A DNA stretch of 59,806 bases, counting the filler, from Dirinaria sp. TL-2023a (taxonomy: Eukaryota), in NCBI GenBank assembly GCA_051941275.1. It is 2 parts of 2 records of this genome, joined end to end, with 100 filler letters (N's around TTAATTAATTAA, not from the genome) between each part and the next. Parts side by side here need not be neighbours in the genome. Positions count along the whole stretch, not along the records: positions 29,956 to 59,806 come from JAVEBF010000110.1; 1 more part is not named here. The stretch is one strand, 5' to 3'. The notes beneath the pieces were generated by a model. It was given only the letters and a program-made list of their open reading frames with translations. It searched no databases and had not been told where the DNA came from. The translations under genes and the position numbers were made by a program. This document shows, in pieces, positions 35,283 to 48,153 of this stretch (its first letter is position 1; each line of letters opens with the position of its first letter).

Positions 35283-37228
35283 CCGGAAAATGATCGCCTC
35301 GGAACCCCGACCTTCTGGAGGGAAGACCCCAAGTTTCCTTAGGCGGAATGCATTTTCCGGCGCAGAATTTCTTCTTCGCCTTAGAAGAATCTGAGTACTG
35401 AGGCAAGGAAATAAGTAGAAGGGACTGATAGGTTCAAGAAGACTGAACGTGACACAGCCAGATCTAATTTGTCCATCCAGCTGGAAGGAGAGCCTAGAAA
35501 TGCTGCTAGCGCAATCAGTGCCATTAGCAATAGCATTGGAGGAACTACTGCGGACGAACACATTGTTAATCCCTTTTTCCTCCCCCAAAACCATTCGAGT
35601 CGACAGATCTTTTGAAGCGCACAGTCTCTAAGCAAGAAGCTCTCCTTATATGATATTTCAATTAGATTCAGTAACTCTGACTCTCGGTTCTGGGATTTCA
35701 TATCTCTGTTGACTGATTGAGGTATCTACTTTGCAGTGGAGTAAAATTTAAAAAAAGAAAAGGGGGTTGTCAAATTAGAGAATTGATATCTTGTGGCTTT
35801 GATCTCGATCAACTTTTTTTTTCTTTCTTCGATAAGTTATGTTTTTCCTTTTTTGAAATTTTTTGAAGTGAACGTCTTGTAATCGGAGAATACTATGGAA
35901 TCCTAACAAATCCAAGGTGGGTCGTAGTAGAAGAAGGTTTGGCAGAGATTGATAGTGATTGTGTAGCTTGGTTAAGATAGTCAATATGCATAAGGGTTAG
36001 AAAGGCGAGGTGCGTCTGGATTAAAGTTTTAGCTACGCTGGACAGAATGCTCGAAGAGCTGGATATCTGGAGTGTCTAGAGTGTAGGGATGAAAAGCAGT
36101 ATATAAATAAATCTCGAACTCAAAGTCCTTCTGACTTCGCACTCAAAAACCCACTGCTCTCCTATGTCCCAGGACCCCGAATTTAGGTTCGATAGGTTTA
36201 CTCAGGTTCATGAGTTGACAGACGTGTTACCAAATGGCCAACTAAACCAAATCAGTGACTTGGTTTCCTAGCTTACTACTTGATGTTCCAGGGTCGTAAC
36301 ACTATGAAGCTATCTTCGTAACACATTTGCCTTATCCGTATCATTGTCCATATAATCCTCCCCACCAAGCCGAAGGAGCCATTAAAATTTCTCACAGCAA
36401 TCATCAAATATCAGGAAAAACAGCACACACTATCTCTTCGATAAATACCCAAAGCAATACCATGTAAATTAATTCCTCTCTTGAGAACTCTGAGTACGAA
36501 GTACTACTCAACGCACGGAGCAGATGTCATATTATGAATTCGCAAGGTCGTCGTTGCATTATCTACATATCTGTTATCTCTGAGTATCATTCCTTCATCG
36601 CGAAGTTCGCACTAAAGCAAGAGGTGGGTTTACAATAGACAATGCAGAACACTATGTTTTTAGTGGACGAAATTCAATAGAATAGATGAGTGAGTCCAAC
36701 AGGATTCAATTGCTGAATTCCACACCAGATTGTGCTGATTCAATGGCTGAATTGGTGTTCTCTCGACAACAAATGCAGGCTATCTATCAACCAGAGGGAC
36801 GAAGAGAGACCGCGCAAGGCTAGAGGTGCTCCTGACAGAGTGAGCTGGGCAATCTTATTGAAAGATTTATGTATGGACCATTCAGAGCGAGTCAAGAAGT
36901 TTTCCACCGAGCCGCATCGCGTATGCATAATGTCAGACACTTAGTTGATATCTTCTTGAACATTGAAACCGTGCCACCAATTAATCTGCATGCTGCAGCC
37001 GAGGCGGCAAACGCCCGATTTCTTAGGGTGATAACAAGTCATTGGTAAACTTTGTTTGGCCGAAGGTTCAGGTGACTGAAGTTTTTGAATTCCTGCAAGC
37101 ACCCTGTCTGATGACTACCCAATCGCCGTTGACCACATCGTCGACGGCTCGCAAGCTGAAGAGACGTGTAATCCAAGTGGAGGTCAGGGAGCACAGTCAG
37201 CTGAAGTTAAGAATTATGTCTCGATCAG

Positions 37229-38389
37229 ATGATGAACATACTTGGTGCCGTTGCTAGTGTTACTCAGCTTGCTGCCTGCAGTCAGTTAGTCTCCAAGCGA
37301 CTCAGGCAGCTCCATAGAGCCGCACATGAAGGCCCATCATTCTGTAGAGCCTAGCTCTTGAACGTCCGCTTTCTGCTTGAGTCCATTCAACGCATTTTTG
37401 CTAATGAAAGTCCCAATGGGGACTCAATCCTTCCTTTGTTAATCACCACTGTAAGTGTTGCCATACTGCTTCTGAAGTTGCTGAAGCTCAATGGTAGTTT
37501 CTACAATTATCTGATCTGGGCGAGCAAAGATCAAGAGATCGAGAACGCCCTCCGTGCTCTGAACGACAAAACATGTCTGCTTCAGTTATATATCTCAGAG
37601 AGAAACTACAATCTCATTAGAAACATGCAGCGAGACAACAAGACCATGAATCAAATCGTCAAAGCCCGTCCATCTCTAGATGCTCACTCTGTATGCATCA
37701 ATCCACAGCTTCAAGAGTATGGCTTTTGTTGGGAATTAGCCTTACCATAGGGCTGAGTCGGTGATTACCCTGGTTTGGTGTTTGCATGCTAGATAGTTTT
37801 CTTTGATTTCTTTCATTGTCTTTGCCTCTATGGCAAACAGGTAGGCAATCAGGTAAGCAAACACCTAATGCCTATACAGGTACCTGGTTATGCCTCCAGA
37901 TAGACTTCCAACAGTCAGTGCTATTAAATGCTATTTCAATAGCTTTCCACTGACGTCCTGATCTTTTTCCACCACATTGAGCTTCTCACCATGGGGAAAA
38001 AGAAACGCGCTGCCCGCAGCTCCGGGTCTAAATCTAAAGGCACAAATCCCACCGCCGATAGTACAGGTAGCAACACGGAACAAGGGCTAGTGAAAATTGT
38101 TTCGAACGGGAATGAGTCAAACAACAAGAGTCAACTAGCTGTAGCCAATGGCTGGCTCAGCCGGCAAGATCCAGTGGATATCAATGCGAGCGATAACAAA
38201 GCGGATGATAGTCAAATCTTTGTGGCGAATGCGAAAGAATGTCCCACGCAAAATCATCAAGAAGCGGGTGTTGAAGATCAAAAGCCTTCAACAACATCGA
38301 TAGAGCGTTGCGAACAATTAGCGCCGGATTTACTTGGTCGTATCATCTGTACAAAAGAAATGCCTGACAAATCGTGTTCACGCTGCTGA
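37229..38389 (+). pseudogene. HeLo-like/SesA-type N-terminal domain gene with an in-frame stop, probably spliced to an exon with a two-repeat amyloid-like motif
   Basis: MMNILGAVASVTQLAACSQLVSKRLRQLH...RA*LLNVRFLLESIQRI...LIWASKDQEIENALRALNDKTCLLQLYIS (TAG at 37352). Phase-0 donor GTATGC at 37691; phase-0 AG at 37980-37981 (GAG context, CTGAC branch ~37950) in frame with ORF 37991-38389. Confidence 0.6.
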
Positions 38390-38479
38390 AGCCTGATCAC
38401 GATCGGAAGAGTGTTGATGATTGTTTCAAGAGAATTCAGCGATGTTTCGATGTTGAGGGCGTCTAGCTCAAGCTGTGTC

Positions 38480-39300
38480 GATGCGGATGCTGAAAGAATG
38501 ATCTTCGCACTACACTTTGAAATTCATGTTACATGTAAGGAAAGGTGTGATAGACAGTCAGTTTAGGGACTGGATGATAGATCCTTCCACATCATCTGCT
38601 TGTGCTTTTCGCTACTAAATCCCTTCTGTATACCTCATATCGTATTCTGATTCCTCTCTCATCTGAGCTTGTAACTTGTGCCACTCAAGAAGCGTCTTGT
38701 CTTGCCGCTTTGAAAACAAAGTAACATGTTTGGACATGATACTCCGTGCTCGCTCTCTTCGCTGAGAGAGAGAGACATTACGCACCGCGGCGGTTCGATG
38801 CATATCACAACATCACAAGAGGTAAAATCTATGCCTTCCTTGCAAGCGCTCGTCGCAAGGACAAGATTCTGATTTCCATTTTCAAACTCACTTAAGGTCT
38901 TTTTCTGTTTAGCTGACGTTGATGAGGTCACTGATGTTTTGAAGCATAAAAATGGTACTTTGATGTGCTAACGACTGTTCCAGGCCGTAGCTCGGACGTT
39001 GGAGTCTGAAATCCCTACTGAACTGCCCTAAAGCAATGCACCTCGAGCAGACGTCGCAGACTTGATACCTATCGAGAAGAACGACTCCATCACTTGCTTC
39101 CGGTCGCATGGCGAAAAGCGAGAAATCAGGTCGCTGCGTTAGGAGATTTTTGGTCAAGCGATGTCTGACGGACGACATGTAAGCTAGCAAAGCTGGCAAC
39201 TCCAAGCCCTCTCTGAGACAATTACTAGGACGCGCCAACATCTTACCAGATAGTGAGAGGCAATGATTTGCTGATGGGGGAAAAAGTTGCACCTGACTCG
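38480..39300 (-). pseudogene. Dicer-like 2 helicase-C-terminal relic (boundaries approximate)
   Basis: TLSEFENGNQNLVLATSACKEGIDFTSCDVVICIEPP, frameshift ~38785, then SLSQRRERARSIMSKHVTLF...LLEWHKLQAQMRE; parallels fungal DCL2 NLLIATSVLEEGID..CNLVICF...SFIQRRGRAR. Confidence 0.75.
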
Positions 39301-41094
39301 GTCAACTCTTTCTCGAGCTGTAACCAATTGTACTCCGTAGTCCCCTAGTCGACAGTCTCTTGGCATACATTGCGCCAGCCTGGACTTGTGATGTCGTACT
39401 CGATACATATATTGGATACCAGCCGCGGATCTTCCTATTAATGTTGAGTAATCATTGATGCAATATATAATCATTATATAGATAAAGGGGATGCAATCTA
39501 CATGGTGGTCTGGGTCTAGGGGTGCGGGTAGAAGTAAGAGAAGGCCGGGGTTATCCCCTACGTCCGACGCTAAACCTGACCGGGTATGGCCGACGAAGGT
39601 GCCATAAGGTAGGTACCTTAGCAACAGATGGAGAAATAGATAGCACTTGCTGATTGGCAGTCAACCATCAGACGGATTTCGAGTGCTCATAGCCACTTGA
39701 GCCCGATTGAATCACTGTTTTTCATTGTTAAGACTTGGTGTTCAAGACATAGCATTAACCCTGAGTACCTACAAGTATTAAATGCCTCTTTTGTTCGAAT
39801 CTGCAGCAATGAAAGACGCTATCACCGGCGACGAAGAGCTGGAAGGTCATAAATGAGCTCCTTCAGAATACCTCCTACTTCTACTTGCTTGCAGCGCTTC
39901 ACACAATTTCAACGTGATGCGCACCTGTGGCCCCTGAAGCTGTTCGCTGAAACTCTTACCCCGAGGCCTCAATGGCGAATCAGCCCATACGCTTAAGCGC
40001 CACAATGTAATACATTAGGCCATATTGACGATGCCACTCATGGATTCGAAACGTAAATTGGCCGCCTCCATCACTTACAATTTCATAATACACTTCGTAC
40101 CACTGAGTCAACGCCGTCAATGTTGGCCCGGGGAAGCTGGCAAAGGGGGAAGATACAGCCTAAAGACGGCCGTAGCAGCGAGGTACTAGTACACGAGCAT
40201 GATGGAACACAGAATGGCTATCGACTCAGCCGAGCAAAACTTCGAGCTCAAGAATACCTGAAATTTAGATACGAGTGCCGCTATGTTGGATTAATGCTTA
40301 CATTGAAGAGCTTAGACTTTACTCCCCCAATATTCCTTCATAATTGCGAACGATTACGAATGATTTACGACACTGCCATCAGGATACAGTCCGAACAGCC
40401 ACTACTTCTTTCGGCCAGTGATACGAGGGTAACTTATGGAAAGGAGCGGTCTGCAATGGAAAGGTTCACTTTCGCTACCTTGCTTACCTAGGTATGCTCG
40501 CCGATCATCATGTGTCAAGCAACATAGCCTCACTGTCGATCCCAGGCACATTAACTTATATTATGTAGGTATTATCACTTCCCAAGTGTAACCACGCTAT
40601 ACTTGAATGCGGGCATTGAATTGGGTCCGCTCCAACTTGCCGCCCACTTGACTTTCAGGCGCGAGGGGGGCTACCTCATAAGCTCAGTGCCCACCACGGA
40701 ACAGGGGAAGGGTTTCGCTATCTACTTTACCCTGTTGTTTCGCACCCTCTCCTTATCAAATACCTTACCACCTCTCTTACTTTCCAGTGACGAAGGCCAA
40801 TCTCTTCGTCATCACCATTGGGAACAGATCGAAGCTTTTTCATTCTTTGATCCTTTTGATGCCAACCGCCAAAAAACTGTTTTATCTCTTCGCACTCAAT
40901 TGGGGGAGTCGAATTTGAATATGATGATCTCTTCATCATACTCGCACTTGTCAAGGCTTTCTGTTATTCTGTTATCATGTGAAGGTAAACTCAGAGTGAT
41001 AGAGCTGGATTCTCTCTTCGGCATTCTCCTTGATCTTGGTTAGCTGTACGTATTTATTCGCCTGATCTTGGCTGAATTTGTCACGCTCACCTTT

Positions 41095-42019
41095 CGTCTA
41101 GTAGAAAGTCTTGGTTTTGGTCGGCATCTTATTGACCTGGACCAGCCAACGGACCACTTATTGGCAAGGTTGATTCCTTAGCTTTGACTAGATCTCAGGG
41201 GCCTGACTTTAAGAGGCTGCAGTGACTGCCTTGGTAATCTTTCTAGTGGCTACGTACTGCATTAAGCTTTCGGTTTTATGTTTTTACAATCGCATATTCG
41301 CCACTGCTCGTTCTACTAAAATAGTTCGCGCAATTGGTATAACCACTGGGACTTTCTGCATCGCCAATTTTCTGGATACGAGATTCGAGTACGTACCGGT
41401 AGGAGCACAGTTGACAGGAAATCCACGCCATTGTTTCAATCTGGATGCCAAATATACGGCGTTGAGTTTCATCAATGCTGCTTTTGATTGGATGCTCCTA
41501 TTGCTGCCTTTTTCCATGATCTGGAAGTTCCACACGAATAGCAAGAGAAAACTGCAGCTTCTGGGCATGTTTCTGTTAGGCGGTCTGTAAGGGGGTCGCT
41601 TTCTTGCCACCAAGATTTCATGGCTGAAATCAATGGCGCTTACATTGCGAGTATCACACAGTATAGACACAACATGTTCTTGGATCCCCGACCTTAGTAG
41701 CCAATGGGGGTGTTACTTACGCTTGGAACGCTAACGCTTGGCAGATCAAGGTACAAGAACCGCTATATAGACTACTGTGGATACTAGTCTCTCCATAGTG
41801 AGCGCATCTCTTCTAACTCTGCGGCCATTGATAGAGCGGTTGATTCACGGCAAGATATACAAAAGTTCATCCTATCTCATATATCAGTCTTCGAAGATCA
41901 AGATCGCAGGAGATCTCTTCTCATCGACTGAGCTCCATGTTCTCGATACTGAGACGAAGACGATTCGCTGTTTACACAGCTACGATCAGATAACGCTTCG
42001 ACGAATACGGAGACTATGA
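41095..42019 (+). pseudogene. PTH11-like / fungal rhodopsin-domain integral membrane protein relic
   Basis: LGFGRHL, IKLSVLCFYNRIF, DWMLLLLPFSMIWK...KLQLLGMFLLGG, then AI*TTVDTSLSIVSASLLTLRPL with TAG (41768) at the conserved Trp position. Confidence 0.75.
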
Positions 42020-42228: not shown

Positions 42229-43204
42229 TTAGATGAACTCCTCAACCTTCTCGTCACACCATGCTCGGAAGTCAGCAGCGCGCCCGTTTCCTCCTTCCTC
42301 GGTGGTTTTCAGGCAAGCCAACAGGTCGTTACGCGGAGCTGTATGCCACCTTCCCCATGGTATCACGTAGTCACCATTATGAGCAGCAGTGACTTCCGGC
42401 GAGAGACCCGCCCAAAGAGCCGTGTAGGCGCCAAACCTCGCTTCGTACAGCAGAGGATTCAGGAACCAAACCAACCATTTGTTGCTATATCTCCATATAC
42501 CGGTCTTAAGGTTCCCAGGGTTCTGCGCAATGCTTACAATGCCGGCAGAGGCATTCTCGTGACCGAACTCGGCAGCGAGGAACCAATTGCCGACCTTTGT
42601 CATAGCATACTTCTTTTCTTGATTTGTGGCTTCTGGTGATGATAGCTCCGCGATGTCCAAACCGTTTTTCGGCGCCAGTGTATCAACGAGCATAGAACTT
42701 GCCCACACCACACGGACACAATCTGCAGCGGCGGATTTCGCACCGGCATGCAATTCGGGTAGGAGAAGCTTTGTGAAGAGCCAAAGGGCCCAGACAGTTG
42801 GTGGCGACCTGCAACTCGTGGCCCTGCTTCGATTTGGTGCCTGCCGGTGGCACTCCCACGCCGGCGTTGTTCCAGAGGACATCGAGCTTCTTTTCCTGCG
42901 ATCGGAATGCGTGAACGGAGGCTTGGATACCCGCTAAGTCCTCCAAATCAAGGTAGAGGAACTTCAGTTGGCCTTGAGAGCTGGGGCGAGATAACTTGAT
43001 CGTCTCGACGGCCTTCTGTGCATTGCTCTCCGATCGACCGGCAATGTAGACTTTCCCACCTGCTTCATACAGAATGGAAGACAGTTCATAGCCAACCCCA
43101 GAAGCGCCTCCAGTGACCAGGAAGACCTTACCTTTCTGGCTTGGAAGATTTGTCTCTGTAAGGCTGGGTCGGGGCGGAAAAAACTGAGTCCAGTAGGCAC
43201 CCAT
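42229..43204 (-). pseudogene. Short-chain dehydrogenase/reductase (retinol-DH/WWOX-like), interrupted by one frameshift
   Basis: VTGGASGVG, LWNNAG, RVVWASS, YAMTK (YxxxK), NPGNLKT. An extra T at ~42783-42785 shifts TNCLGP/WLFTKLLLP; real lesion or sequencing error. Confidence 0.85.
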
Positions 43205-43724
43205 ATCGAATCGGTCTCTATAGGAGGGCCGGAGTGTAGCACTCTGGGAACCAACACAGCTCTACCTTATATAACGGCAGCAGCTTTGGGAGAGGACGAG
43301 GGTGCTCGACAAAATCACGCTAATTTTGGTCAAATGGAAGGGCAAACCGTGCAAGTGAGTTTTGAGACCATTGAAGTACTGAGACACGGGACTTGGGCAA
43401 TAATCCCTCTGCGTGACTCAGAGTGCAGATCGATGGAACCTCAACTTAAATAAACTGCAACTGCGATTTCAGAGGATGCAGACATCGAACTGATATCACT
43501 CCATAACGCTTGAGCTACTGAGGCACTTGACGTGCTAATCACGAAATATCGAGCTGGGTTGTTCTTCGAAGGGCTGTGCGCTACGGCGGTACCTTAATGC
43601 TGCACGCCAATCCTCCGCCCCGCATACTGCGCTTACTGTACTCTTACTGTATGTAAGAATCCCTCATGCCATTAACGTGGACCACTCCCGGAGGATTTTC
43701 TGTACACACTAAACTATTCGCGGC

Positions 43725-44038
43725 TTAAGTCGGTCGCTGACCAGCTCCCTGATCTGCGTCAGCCCCCATATCAGGAAGTAAGGCAACCGTCGCTCGTGTC
43801 CGCATGCTGCAGCTAGACGTAAGGCAACGGCACCAAAATTGTCGTAGGTCTCGCAGCATGGTCGACCCTCCAGCAGCGAGTGCACCATGGTTTGGTCGCC
43901 CTGTTCCTCTGCCAAATGGAGAGCTGTTTGACCCTCATCATTTGCAATATTTGGACTAGCTCCTTCACGAGCGATCAGCAGCTGCGCTACATCCGTGCGT
44001 CCAAGTCGAACTGCTTGATGCAGTGGAGTATCCCCAAC
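43725..44038 (-). pseudogene. Ankyrin-repeat relic (three repeats)
   Basis: GDTPLHQAVRLGRTDVAQLLIAREGASPNIANDEGQTALHLAEEQGDQTMVHSLLEG...ALRLAAACGHE, frameshift ~43793, then ATVALLPDMGADAD. No in-frame ATG upstream of the first repeat. Confidence 0.8.
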
Positions 44039-45528
44039 ACATGCCTTCCCCCCTTCGAATGGTCTCCATCGGTCCTTCGAATTCCGAGTGCGTCTCTAGC
44101 TCATGCTCAATGTACTCTTGCGTCTTTAAACTTCCTAGATCAAGGAATTCTCCGTGATCTGCGACCAAAGGTAGGCGTCCAGTATCTTGAAAATCCCCCG
44201 GCACAGGATTAAAGGCCACGTGCGAGCTCGCGGACGATAGACCTCCCAGTTAGGGCGACACAAATGTGGAGACCTCGTGTTCTGTGGTGCTTGGATAATA
44301 GCCCCCCAGACTCCAATTAAGGTCATGTGCTGGCTGCTCGACCAGCTGGGACATCACCTTCAGCTCTAGAGTTGTGTTCCTTAATTGGCTGGGTCCCTCT
44401 TGTCGTCTTTGACTTGGACCCCTTCAGAATGTCAGCATGCGAAGTTCGAAGCTAAGCGGCTCCTACATGATCTGACTATATTTGCGCTGTGTCATTCGAT
44501 TTTGAGCCTTTCTCCGACCTGTCGTTTTCTCCGTTCGAGTCCAATCATCGCTGCATAAATATCTCACAGAGCAGTGCTTTCGATACCTCATGAGCTCGTG
44601 TTGCAAAAGTCATTGTATTAAGTTTTGTGTGTTGGCGCCAAATGCGTCTATCTAGCAAGCAAAAAGCTGCCTCAAATCATGCTGCCAACCGCATCTGGAA
44701 ATCTTATGCTTCTATGCTTCTGGGTCAGATATCTGCATAGAAGCAATCATATATCTATCAAATGCGCACCTGAGGAGGCATCGATGGCTTCTATAAGGTG
44801 GCATCATGGCATCGATGGTCTGTATGAGGTGATAGTAACCTTCATGAGGTGACATCGCAAGCATCTAGACACTTCCCCTTTGTCTTGCAAGGCCATGGAT
44901 GGCGGCATTGTGGACGAACAATTGACACACTGCTCGGTCGAAGGTGAATATGCAGCTCATCCGGCTTTCCTAATCGTGTGGCAACTTTGGGAGGCAATGG
45001 AACGTCTTGAATCTTTCGAGGCAAGGCAACCTCTTCAAGCTCATCCTTGATAGGGTGGAGGCCACTTCATGCAAAGCTGAAGGTGCCAAGGTTTAATTTG
45101 GGGTTCTATGTTTCTGCCATCTGCGAAAAGCATCATCGAACACACATACCGTCCAGTGGCTTGTGTTGAGCAGTAGAATTTTGTGAGTGGCCGAGATATA
45201 TCCTCGATGAAAACGAAGTCCCGCTTACGACGGACATACACTCCTGCACGACATACTCAGACCGTGCAGCCTGTGATGGCTTCTTGGTTAGCCTCCACGA
45301 TTGGCCGCATGGATATATCTACCTTTCCAATTCCGACTTTAGCAAGATAGCGCGATATCTTTCATTGACGCCGCACCAAGATCTTCCGTTCTAAATTGAA
45401 TATCATCAAGCCGTTCCTACTAAATAGGAGCTATGGCTATGCAAATTTCAGCAGAGCTTCTCATTCCTTCTGCCTGCTGAAATCTTCAAGTGATTGTCCT
45501 ATACCTTCTCAGTGTTGATCACTTCAAT

Positions 45529-46762: not shown

Positions 46763-48153
46763 ATGCCAACCCTTGAGGAAACATTTCAAGCTGCTTGTGA
46801 TGCAGAAGTCATACTAGGCGTTGTACTAGTTGCCGAAAACAAATCGGGTATAAGGCTCGATAAGCTGCCAGTCATTCACTGCGACGATGGCTACTGATAT
46901 CGGCCAGGGAGTCTCAATTTTGGCCGGGCGTTCGGGACCCGTTCCTTGAAAGACCCGTCGTCACGTCCACCGATGGCGCTGGATACAGTAATACGCATCG
47001 CCAGCTCTACGAAGCTAGTGACCAGCGTAGCTGCCATGCAATGCGTCGAGCGAGGCTTGCTCAACCTAGATCAGGACGTAGTCGAGGTCTTGCCGGATTT
47101 TCGGCATCTACGGTTGCTGGTGGACTTTGATGCAGATGGCAAGCCAGTGACTGAGAAGGTGACTCAGCCGATTACTTTGAGGTTGGGGGTGCCCATCAAG
47201 ATTTTCTTAAACTGCCGTGGCTACTAATTCATCGATAGACGCATGCTTTCGCATTCTTCGGGCTTCTGTTATGATTCCATGTCACCGCTGCTAACGAAAT
47301 GGCGGGCCTCACGAGGCGAAGATTGCCAGCCGGGAGGACAAAAGATCGACGACAGATTTCTCTATCCGTTGGTGTACGAGCCAGGATCTTCGTGGACGTA
47401 TGGACCCTCGATTGACTGGATTGGGAGAATCGTGGAGCGGGTGAACGGCGGCATGTCGCTCGAGAATTACATGCAGAAGAACATTTGGAAGCCGCTCGAC
47501 ATCACAGACATGACATTCTTTTTGCAGCGGCGACCGGATCTGTTGGCCCGACGAGCAGATCTCAGCGATCGAGTCGGAGACGAGAGTGGCAAGCTCGTGT
47601 ACGCAGACGCTCAGTACTGGCATGAGGATTACGAGGATTGCTTCGGAGGCATGGGCCTCTTCGCGACGCCGGCGGAGTTCATGAAGATCATGCACAGCCT
47701 GGTTTCCGACGATGGAAAGCTGCTGAAACCGGAGACCGTGGAACTGATGTTTCAGCCTCAGTTGACCGGCCGCAGCCGTGACGCTTTGATGAAGTTCTAC
47801 AACGACACCTCCACGAACGAAATGATGGGTACCCTGGCCCCCGTGGGACTGAAGAAAGATCATGCGTTGGGTGGGTTATTATTTATGGAGGACGTTCCCA
47901 ACGAAAAACGGAGACGTAAAGGTACCATGACTTGGAGCGGCTTACCGAACGTGTTCTGGGTAAGATTTTTGAGCTTTCAACCTCTACCTTTTTTCTATCG
48001 CCCAATGGACCATTGACGGATGCTCACTAGTTTATCGATCGGGAAGCAGGACTATGTGCTATGTATGCTTCACAGGTTCGACCGCCAGGCGATAAGAAAT
48101 CATTGGAACTAGCTGCGCTTTTCGAAGAGACGATATATGAGCGGCTGTTGTGA
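46763..48153 (+). CDS. Beta-lactamase/transpeptidase-like serine hydrolase (LovD/EstB-type); exons 46763-46847, 46908-47181, 47239-47959, 48031-48153
   Basis: SxxK motif IASSTKLVTSVAAMQCVERG, ITLRRMLSHSSGFCY, PLVYEPGSSWTYG, WSGLPNVFW|FIDREAGLC; intact frame across three introns. Confidence 0.92.

Follow-up and report, generated by a model that had tools for sequence, protein, structure and literature searches.

In a 59,806-nucleotide stretch of DNA from Dirinaria sp. TL-2023a (GenBank assembly GCA_051941275.1; the whole stretch is hereafter called the window), we identified a locus on the + strand that appears to be one two-exon gene, joined by a putative splice, of a conserved and unnamed family in filamentous ascomycetes. 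We read this locus, which lies in the part of the window taken from JAVEBF010000110.1, as an effector gene of the HET-S/HELLF kind with a divergent double repeat of the type found in amyloid motifs related to HET-s (HRAMs), and we read this particular copy as most likely inactivated; for the reading as a whole, we estimate a probability of roughly 0.6.

HET-S with NWD2 and HELLF with FNT1 act by templated conversion followed by membrane attack. From this paradigm, together with the co-evolution and structural models described below, we infer how the encoded protein might work. An N-terminal helical bundle of ~150 aa is followed by a disordered linker and by two pseudo-repeats joined by a short loop. 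The repeats would fold into a two-rung HET-s-type β-solenoid, with either a copy that has already converted or a one-repeat motif on a cognate NOD-like receptor (NLR) as template. Conversion would then free the N-terminal hydrophobic helix of a HeLo-like/SesA/MLKL-type bundle, leading to membrane attack and cell death.

The first exon opens with an ATG at 37229, and its frame (37229-37690, + strand) reads MMNILGAVASVTQLAA...WASKDQEIENALRAL...LLQLYI, with an in-frame TAG and an open frame on either side of it. A second open frame (37943-38389, + strand) encodes the two repeats, VKIVSNGNESNNKSQLAVANG and VDINASDNKADDSQIFVANA, with a 7-codon spacer. The exon, repeat, and splice-site positions given in the initial annotation of this DNA are all correct.

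A word-indexed search with exon 1 returned 14 proteins of 160 to 296 aa (48 to 71% identity, E = 1.5e-64 to 1.9e-31); no precomputed Pfam domain was recorded for any of these 14 close homologues, and the same type of search found no longer relatives. A profile built from the homologues and searched against 1.84 billion representatives matched 133 clusters at E ≤ 1e-3, of which 87 reached E ≤ 1e-10 and 16 reached E ≤ 1e-30, with the domain nearly always at the N terminus. Judged by this conservation, exon 1 is a real conserved coding exon. Family members include NCBI-annotated proteins from metagenome-assembled Loekoesia, Villophora, and Dirinaria genomes (P0017, P0018, and P0019), from Viridothelium virens (P0031), and from Bathelium mastoideum (P0043, P0044, and P0048), all of them annotated as "hypothetical protein." These five genera are lichen-forming. 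The closest family members come from lichen-forming fungi, as do most of the full-length homologues that conserve the repeats; more distant members come from Alternaria, Plenodomus, Bogoriella, and Apiospora. No homologue locus was confirmed in JGI metagenome contigs scanned with a family alignment (A1) and with protein P0020. Annotated full-length proteins of Loekoesia, Villophora, Dirinaria, Viridothelium, and Bathelium combine domain and repeats in one chain, and such homologues (P0017 and P0019) match both window exons in order, which bears out the earlier proposal of a helical domain fused to a two-repeat motif.

Compared only with each other, the two imperfect repeats described in the initial annotation look like chance: their best internal alignment score, 31, is attained by 36 of 300 versions of the exon-2 protein with shuffled residues, and the similarity is not significant. 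Comparison across species tells otherwise, and there the repeat block is conserved more than expected by chance. The tails of six homologues (P0017, P0018, P0019, P0020, P0021, and P0034) share a block of the form h-K-I-x-A-x-x-N...Q-x-h-A-N-G-W-G, a loop, and x-x-I-N-A-S-x-N...Q-x-h-A/G-N-A (h, hydrophobic). A two-repeat hidden Markov model (HMM) built from six homologues, with the window left out, recovered the open reading frame (ORF) at 37943-38386 with E = 6.5e-9, and the next best of the 1887 six-frame window ORFs scored E = 0.89. Five more distant members (P0031, P0032, P0043, P0044, and P0048) also align over the block. Of 125 family tails, 9 have two h-[GA]-N endings spaced by 24 to 48 residues, whereas 200 shuffles yielded 0.57 on average and never more than 4; many of the remaining tails are intron read-through from unspliced gene calls, which affects this share. 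The loop between the repeats is Gly-rich (WG..) and 7 to 10 aa long in close homologues and 4 to 5 aa long in the five distant members. A word-indexed protein search with exon 2 had found no relatives, a null result that reflects a failure of sensitivity because the profile search later found conserved ones.

Other distant members, from Apiospora and elsewhere (P0103, P0111, P0116, P0102, and P0131), carry different paired h-x-h-G-N/D motifs, such as ...IVGN...KVGN. The N-terminal domain family may thus be associated with several HRAM-like motif variants.

According to the paper that defined these motifs (PMC4518210), equivalent positions of the two HRAM repeats carry complementary charges, the pattern that in-register stacking predicts. 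We counted such charge pairs in 12 family proteins, after two near-duplicates had been dropped. In-register positions of repeat 1 and repeat 2 form 31 opposite-charge and 2 same-charge pairs, an excess reached in 0 of 2000 shuffles, whereas registers shifted by 1 to 3 positions give 3 to 14 opposite-charge versus 2 to 8 same-charge pairs. Repeats from the same protein average 2.58 opposite-charge and 0.17 same-charge positions per pair, compared with 1.02 and 1.07 for non-cognate repeats. The bias is seen in the five distant members alone (11 versus 0), in a 7-protein set (20 versus 2), and in the window repeats themselves (3 versus 0). These counts show that the two repeats co-evolve, with opposite charges facing each other in register.

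Structure prediction is consistent with such stacking. The initial annotation had suggested modeling the repeats as a β-solenoid, and AlphaFold2, given the window exon 2 (P0002) with a 14-row alignment, does build two stacked rungs of three strands each: predicted strands 33-38, 41-43, and 47-50 in repeat 1 and 61-66, 69-71, and 74-77 in repeat 2. The predicted local distance difference test (pLDDT) score is 71 to 87 over residues 31 to 80, and the remainder is disordered. In a model of the full-length homologue P0019, the same two rungs follow a disordered linker, with a pLDDT of 82 to 85 except for one 10-residue block at 66. When the window repeat model was compared with 48,161 PDB representatives, the sole chain with Z ≥ 2 was 2kj3_A, the amyloid of HET-s 218-289; the match is weak (Z 3.9, root mean square deviation [rmsd] 5.4, 52 residues aligned). 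Foldseek returned five rows at E ≤ 10 for the repeat model, the top two being the HET-s (2rnm, E 2.4) and HELLF (6eka, E 3.7) amyloids. An ESM Atlas search with the C-terminal part of P0019 was uninformative (best score, 0.76). Together, these models suggest that the repeats would fold into a two-rung HET-s-type β-solenoid.

To place the repeats among published HRAMs, we anchored position numbering on Asn20; the HET-s residue numbers used for the mapping are in part our assumption. Given as repeat 1/repeat 2, the window has I/I at position 3, S/A at 5, N/N at 8, S/A at 10, Q/Q at 15, L/I at 16, V/V at 18, A/A at 19, and N/N at 20. Among 24 family repeats, a hydrophobic residue stands at position 3 in all 23 that have a residue there, and a small one at position 14 in all 24. 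Gln is found at 16 in 14 repeats, a hydrophobic residue at 18 in 22 (the other 2 have Ala), Ala and Gly at 19 in 12 each, and Asn at 20 in 19. Ala is the usual residue at position 5, and position 15 varies (Q, E, K, R, G, and others); position 8 holds Asn in the close subfamily but M, V, or T in the Trypetheliales members.

The HRAM definition (Daskalov et al. 2015, PMC4518210) comprises two pseudo-repeats of ~21 aa near the C terminus, a loop of 6 to 18 aa, a perfectly conserved Gly19, hydrophobic residues at 5, 8, 10, 16, and 18, Asn, Gln, or His at 3, and preferably Arg or Lys at 15; Gln occurs at 18 in HRAM4 and at 16 in HRAM5. The window agrees in length and loop (repeats of 21 and 20 aa, loop of 7 aa), and the family agrees in charge complementarity (31 versus 2 pairs in the 12 proteins). 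At the hydrophobic positions, 16 and 18 of the window fit, while 5, 8, and 10 hold S/A, N/N, and S/A. Relative to HET-s, Asn and a hydrophobic residue are swapped between positions 3 and 8, with the inward positions conserved alike. The Trypetheliales members, with M, V, or T at 8 and G at 19 in repeat 2, are nearer the canonical pattern, and the family therefore grades into classical HRAMs. We describe the repeat as a putative divergent HRAM type with a hydrophobic residue at 3, Ala at 5, Asn at 8, small residues at 10 and 14, Gln or Leu at 16, a hydrophobic residue at 18, Ala or Gly at 19, and Asn at 20.

The ending in VAN, which the initial annotation had flagged as a possible undescribed variant, holds up in the wider family: with Ala at position 19 in half of the repeats, the replacement of Gly by Ala is a true family trait. 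The signature strings NGWG, ANGW, INAS, IANG, WANG, and ANGY are absent from the 155-protein HRAM table (PMC4518210 supplement); in that table VANA is confined to a loop and GNGW to the loops of two Sphaerobolus proteins, and VANG has a single occurrence, in a single-repeat (r0) motif. A search of 11 of 13 supplementary files of PMC9815663 likewise found no ANGWG, GNGWG, NGWG, or INASGN. A search at the level of paper listings for a sixth HRAM, or for an amyloid-signaling motif of lichens or Lecanoromycetes, brought up no paper on the family motif. The repeat type thus appears to be uncatalogued. The PF11558 profile, which had been proposed as a check, gave no match for the window exon 2 at E ≤ 10 or for 131 family representatives at E ≤ 0.01. 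According to PMC4518210, this profile matches only 38 of the 155 HRAM proteins.

The identity of the N-terminal domain, which the initial annotation called HeLo-like or SesA-type, is suggested by relatives rather than by exon 1 itself, which has no Pfam match at E ≤ 10. Sub-threshold matches occur in 5 of the 131 family representatives, to PF17111 (P0066, P0126, P0142, and P0145) and to PF17107 (P0071 and P0145), and all start from profile position 1. The best are P0142 for PF17111 (23.1 bits, E = 5.4e-5; gathering score, 27.2) and P0145 for PF17107 (21.0 bits, E = 3.8e-4; gathering score, 26.3); the remaining four Pfam matches at E ≤ 0.01 fall in four unrelated families, once each. In the nearest ESM Atlas clusters (scores 0.94 to 0.95), 11 to 28% of members carry PF17111 or PF17107, and a P0126 cluster-mate (90% cluster) is named "Fungal N-terminal domain-containing protein" by UniRef. 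AlphaFold2 predicts for P0019 helices at 2-32, 36-57, 63-84, 93-99, and 101-145, with a pLDDT of 83 to 94 over residues 2 to 145. Aligned by VIA-align, this domain matches MLKL (4btf_A: Z 11.4, rmsd 2.2, 96 residues aligned; 6ux8_A: Z 10.7) no better than it matches designed bundles (Z 11.8), and the N-terminal parts of plant NLRs (9fyc and 7x8u, Z 8.6 to 8.7) likewise stand among many designed bundles of equal score. Foldseek gave no match for the domain at E ≤ 0.001, and a profile search of solved-structure sequences found only designed helical bundles, at E ≥ 0.099. We read the N-terminal domain as a remote branch of the HeLo-like/SesA superfamily that lacks a Pfam model, not as a demonstrated member.

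This copy of the gene is probably not functional. The TAG, which the initial annotation had treated as the reason why the ORF track misses the gene, is indeed present; it is more than an ORF-calling nuisance and marks a probable inactivation. Gln stands at its column in 13 of 14 homologues and His in the other (P0016), which makes the stop a nonsense change within coding sequence, not a piece of an intron; it presumably arose as CAG to TAG. Neighboring genes are ordinary ascomycete housekeeping genes (asparaginyl-tRNA synthetase, SRP68, KRR1, and NOG1) whose frames read open with the standard code, so that TAG does mean stop. Repeat-induced point mutation (RIP) was ruled out as its source, since the TpA/ApT (0.76) and (CpA+TpG)/(ApC+GpT) (1.31) indices over 35.7-41.2 kb are like those of the rest of the window. 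Of 70 conserved columns, in which at least 90% of the other sequences agree on a residue, the window departs from that residue at 15, compared with 0 to 8 for the 14 homologues. This count suggests relaxed constraint, although part of it could be lineage divergence. Because the TAG replaces a Gln kept in 13 of 14 homologues, the window copy has probably been inactivated, as an allele or as a young pseudogene, unless the TAG itself is erroneous.

That last possibility is the best-surviving alternative, although we consider it unlikely: the gene and its mechanism would be the same, but the copy would be intact in nature and the TAG would be a sequencing or assembly error or a rare isolate allele. 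The TAG is a single disabling change in two exons that are otherwise open and free of frameshifts, the repeat block is still recognized by the homologue model (E = 6.5e-9) and retains three opposite-charge pairs, and no RIP signature is present over 35.7-41.2 kb. An intact copy is harder to reconcile with its being the most deviant of all at the conserved columns (15 of 70 versus 0 to 8) and with the lack of a partner NLR within the window.

Several further observations weigh against reading the locus as an inactivated HET-S/HELLF-style effector gene. An assembly error could account for the TAG. The window protein has no match to PF17111, PF17107, PF14479, or PF11558 even at E ≤ 10, and no match in any of the 131 family representatives reaches a Pfam gathering score. 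The resemblance to MLKL is non-discriminating, such Z values being common for helical proteins by the tool's own warning. Three HRAM hallmarks (Gly19, a hydrophobic position 8, and Arg or Lys at 15) are absent from the window repeats, and the structural match to HET-s (Z 3.9; Foldseek E > 1) is weak, so that we count it as consistent with the predicted fold and not as proof. The putative 291-nt intron would be long in comparison with that suggested for homologues (see below). Published effector genes of the HRAM kind mostly, but not always, adjoin an NLR with a single cognate motif (r0). An NLR with a single-repeat copy, expected by the initial annotation, was not found within the 59.8-kb window: no NACHT or NB-ARC domain was detected in the 88 ORFs of at least 102 aa across the window or in the 60 ORFs of 55 to 158 aa within 35.3-46.8 kb, and no third copy of the motif occurs in the window (best other ORF, E = 2.1). 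An isolated ankyrin-repeat ORF downstream was considered as an NLR tail and rejected, as its neighboring ORFs lack NACHT and NB-ARC matches.

Some of these observations would also fit a different function, in which the repeats are no prion or amyloid switch but a small monomeric β-structure or binding module and the N-terminal domain is no membrane-attacking executioner. The motif misses several HRAM hallmarks and has no PF11558 match, its structural match to HET-s is weak, and no NLR neighbors it in the window; Pfam's current name for PF17111 is PigL_N (pigment cluster protein), which leaves even true relatives without a settled function. We nevertheless regard this alternative as improbable. 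The 21-aa period, the short loop, the inward/outward pattern (positions 3, 5, 8, 10, 16, and 18), the [AG]19-N20 arc, and the charge complementarity are all features described in the HRAM paper, and the HET-s amyloid is the only PDB chain with Z ≥ 2.

The effector reading further depends on the two open frames belonging to one gene. The donor at 37691 can be joined in phase 0 to the repeat ORF by only three acceptors, 37942, 37981, and 38002. Acceptor 37981 is the only one of the three with a good branch point (CTGAC, 29 nt upstream), and it has 11 pyrimidines in 15; because its signals are the best among the frame-keeping acceptors, the putative 291-nt phase-0 intron, which is also the join given in the initial annotation, is the best single-intron model. 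A 12-nt microexon and two-intron models are possible, and the AG and GTAAGC flanks reported for a microexon at 37841-37852 are present. The end of exon 1 at 37690 is supported by the 15-row exon-1 alignment, in which conservation ends, in unspliced ORF calls of other assemblies, at an invariant Val usually followed by Cys, since Val-Cys is the GTATGC donor translated unspliced. In tblastn searches, annotated full-length P0017 (exon 1, E = 1e-39; exon 2, E = 1.6e-4) and P0019 (E = 8e-33 and 0.004) match both exons in the same order on the + strand. These searches uncovered no further copy in the window, and the idea of a second paralogue there was dropped. Two unspliced ORF calls, P0020 and P0021, run from the N-terminal domain through 25 to 30 residues of junk-like sequence into the repeats; this stretch suggests an in-frame intron of ~80 to 90 nt at the same site, far shorter than the 291 nt of the window. 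That the locus holds two unrelated genes, with exon 1 a separate short gene and the second ORF starting at its own ATG at 37991 (MGKKKR...), is very improbable despite the good context of that ATG (caccATGG) and the long proposed intron, as annotated homologues carry both parts in one protein, P0020 and P0021 run from domain to repeats on one strand, and the tblastn matches fall in homologue order with the MGKKKR linker region unconserved. The coordinates of the gene and its surroundings are given in Table 1.

Table 1. Features of the candidate effector gene and of neighboring sequence, in window coordinates
Feature	Position (strand)	Details
Exon 1	37229..37690 (+)	N-terminal helical domain, ~150 aa; ATG at 37229 or 37232, homologues begin MDILGG or MNILGG
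Premature stop	37352..37354 (+)	TAG, codon 42; homologues mostly Gln at this column
Putative phase-0 intron	37691..37981 (+)	291 nt; GTATGC donor, CTGAC branch point, AG at 37980-37981
Exon 2	37982..38389 (+)	Unconserved linker, two-repeat motif, 50-aa tail; TGA at 38387-38389
Repeat 1	38090..38152 (+)	21 aa, VKIVSNGNESNNKSQLAVANG; aligned with repeat 1 of 11 homologous clusters
Inter-repeat loop	38153..38173 (+)	7 aa, WLSRQDP
Repeat 2	38174..38233 (+)	20 aa, VDINASDNKADDSQIFVANA; aligned with repeat 2 of homologues
Region of lowest G+C	35700..41200	~5.5 kb; G+C 0.449 versus 0.49 overall
Helicase_C fragment	38662..38967 (-)	102-aa ORF; E = 8.1e-9
Overlapping ORFs upstream of the Helicase_C ORF	38912..39301 and 39187..39660 (-)	In other frames; no Pfam match
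Fungal rhodopsin-domain protein	41213..41587 (+)	PF20684
Short-chain dehydrogenase	42686..43261 (-)	
Isolated ankyrin-repeat ORF	43712..44095 (-)	128 aa; Ank_2, E = 3e-16
Beta-lactamase-family protein	47228..48013 (+)	

The gene lies in the part of the window with the lowest G+C, which contains no other long intact ORF and has normal RIP indices. On the opposite strand, 38662-39660 has the appearance of a broken-up or degenerate helicase gene, oriented convergently with the effector gene. Farther downstream lie the rhodopsin-domain, dehydrogenase, and beta-lactamase-family genes listed in Table 1.

Going beyond the single locus, we tentatively propose, at slightly less than even odds, that the Lecanoromycete subfamily that includes the window copy is an uncatalogued sixth class of HET-s-related amyloid, in which Ala takes the place of the supposedly invariant Gly19 of the arc and the Asn ladder sits at position 8, not 3, and which is carried on a HeLo-like/SesA branch that has no Pfam model. 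Such a class would form its own prion specificity group for NLR-controlled cell death in lichen-forming fungi, and the window would hold a naturally silenced allele. A handful of motif families are known for amyloid signaling from NLR to effector, and most were defined in Sordariomycetes. By retaining the 21-aa period, the inward/outward pattern, and the salt bridges between repeats while replacing Gly19 and shifting the Asn ladder, the present family would show what the HET-s fold needs and would offer a natural test case for cross-seeding barriers. PF11558, PF17111, PF17107, and PF14479 give the family no above-threshold match, so that effectors mostly labeled "hypothetical protein" in lichen-fungus genomes would be missed. 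A nonsense allele without a nearby NLR may be one example of how death effectors are lost.

No new principle is involved; the architecture, and by analogy the proposed mechanism, follow the HET-S and HELLF paradigm. Like PF17111 (Helo_like_N, now PigL_N), PF17107 (SesA), and MLKL, the family has a short conserved hydrophobic N-terminal helix followed by a helical bundle at the same position in the protein, although no member reaches the PF17111 or PF17107 gathering score.

The aromatic Trp of HET-s lies after repeat 2, whereas the family has a Trp in the loop after repeat 1. The family also differs from HET-S/HET-s with NWD2 of Podospora anserina (HRAM1, PF11558) in having a hydrophobic residue at 3 and Asn at 8, where HET-s has Asn at 3 and a hydrophobic residue at 8, and the window copy differs in having Ala19 for Gly19, no Arg or Lys at 15, no PF14479 or PF11558 match, and no adjacent NLR. 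Shared with HET-s are the N-terminal helical domain, the predicted disordered linker, two 21-aa pseudo-repeats with a short loop, conserved inward positions 3, 5, 8, 10, 16, and 18, an x-N arc at 19-20, and in-register charge complementarity; the HET-s amyloid is also the only PDB chain with Z ≥ 2 for the window repeat model, if a weak match (Z 3.9).

HELLF with FNT1, also of P. anserina (HeLo-like domain with HRAM5), is marked by QxFG at positions 1-4 and QG(QI) at 16-18. The family lacks both and has instead h-x-h-x at 1-4 and Q/L-x-h-[AG]-N at 16-20, and the Foldseek match of the repeat model to 6eka is not significant (E 3.7). In other respects, HELLF is a close parallel: it pairs a HeLo-like-type bundle, not a HeLo domain, with a strongly divergent HRAM that keeps the same solenoid backbone, and it has Gln at core position 16, as do 14 of the 24 family repeats.

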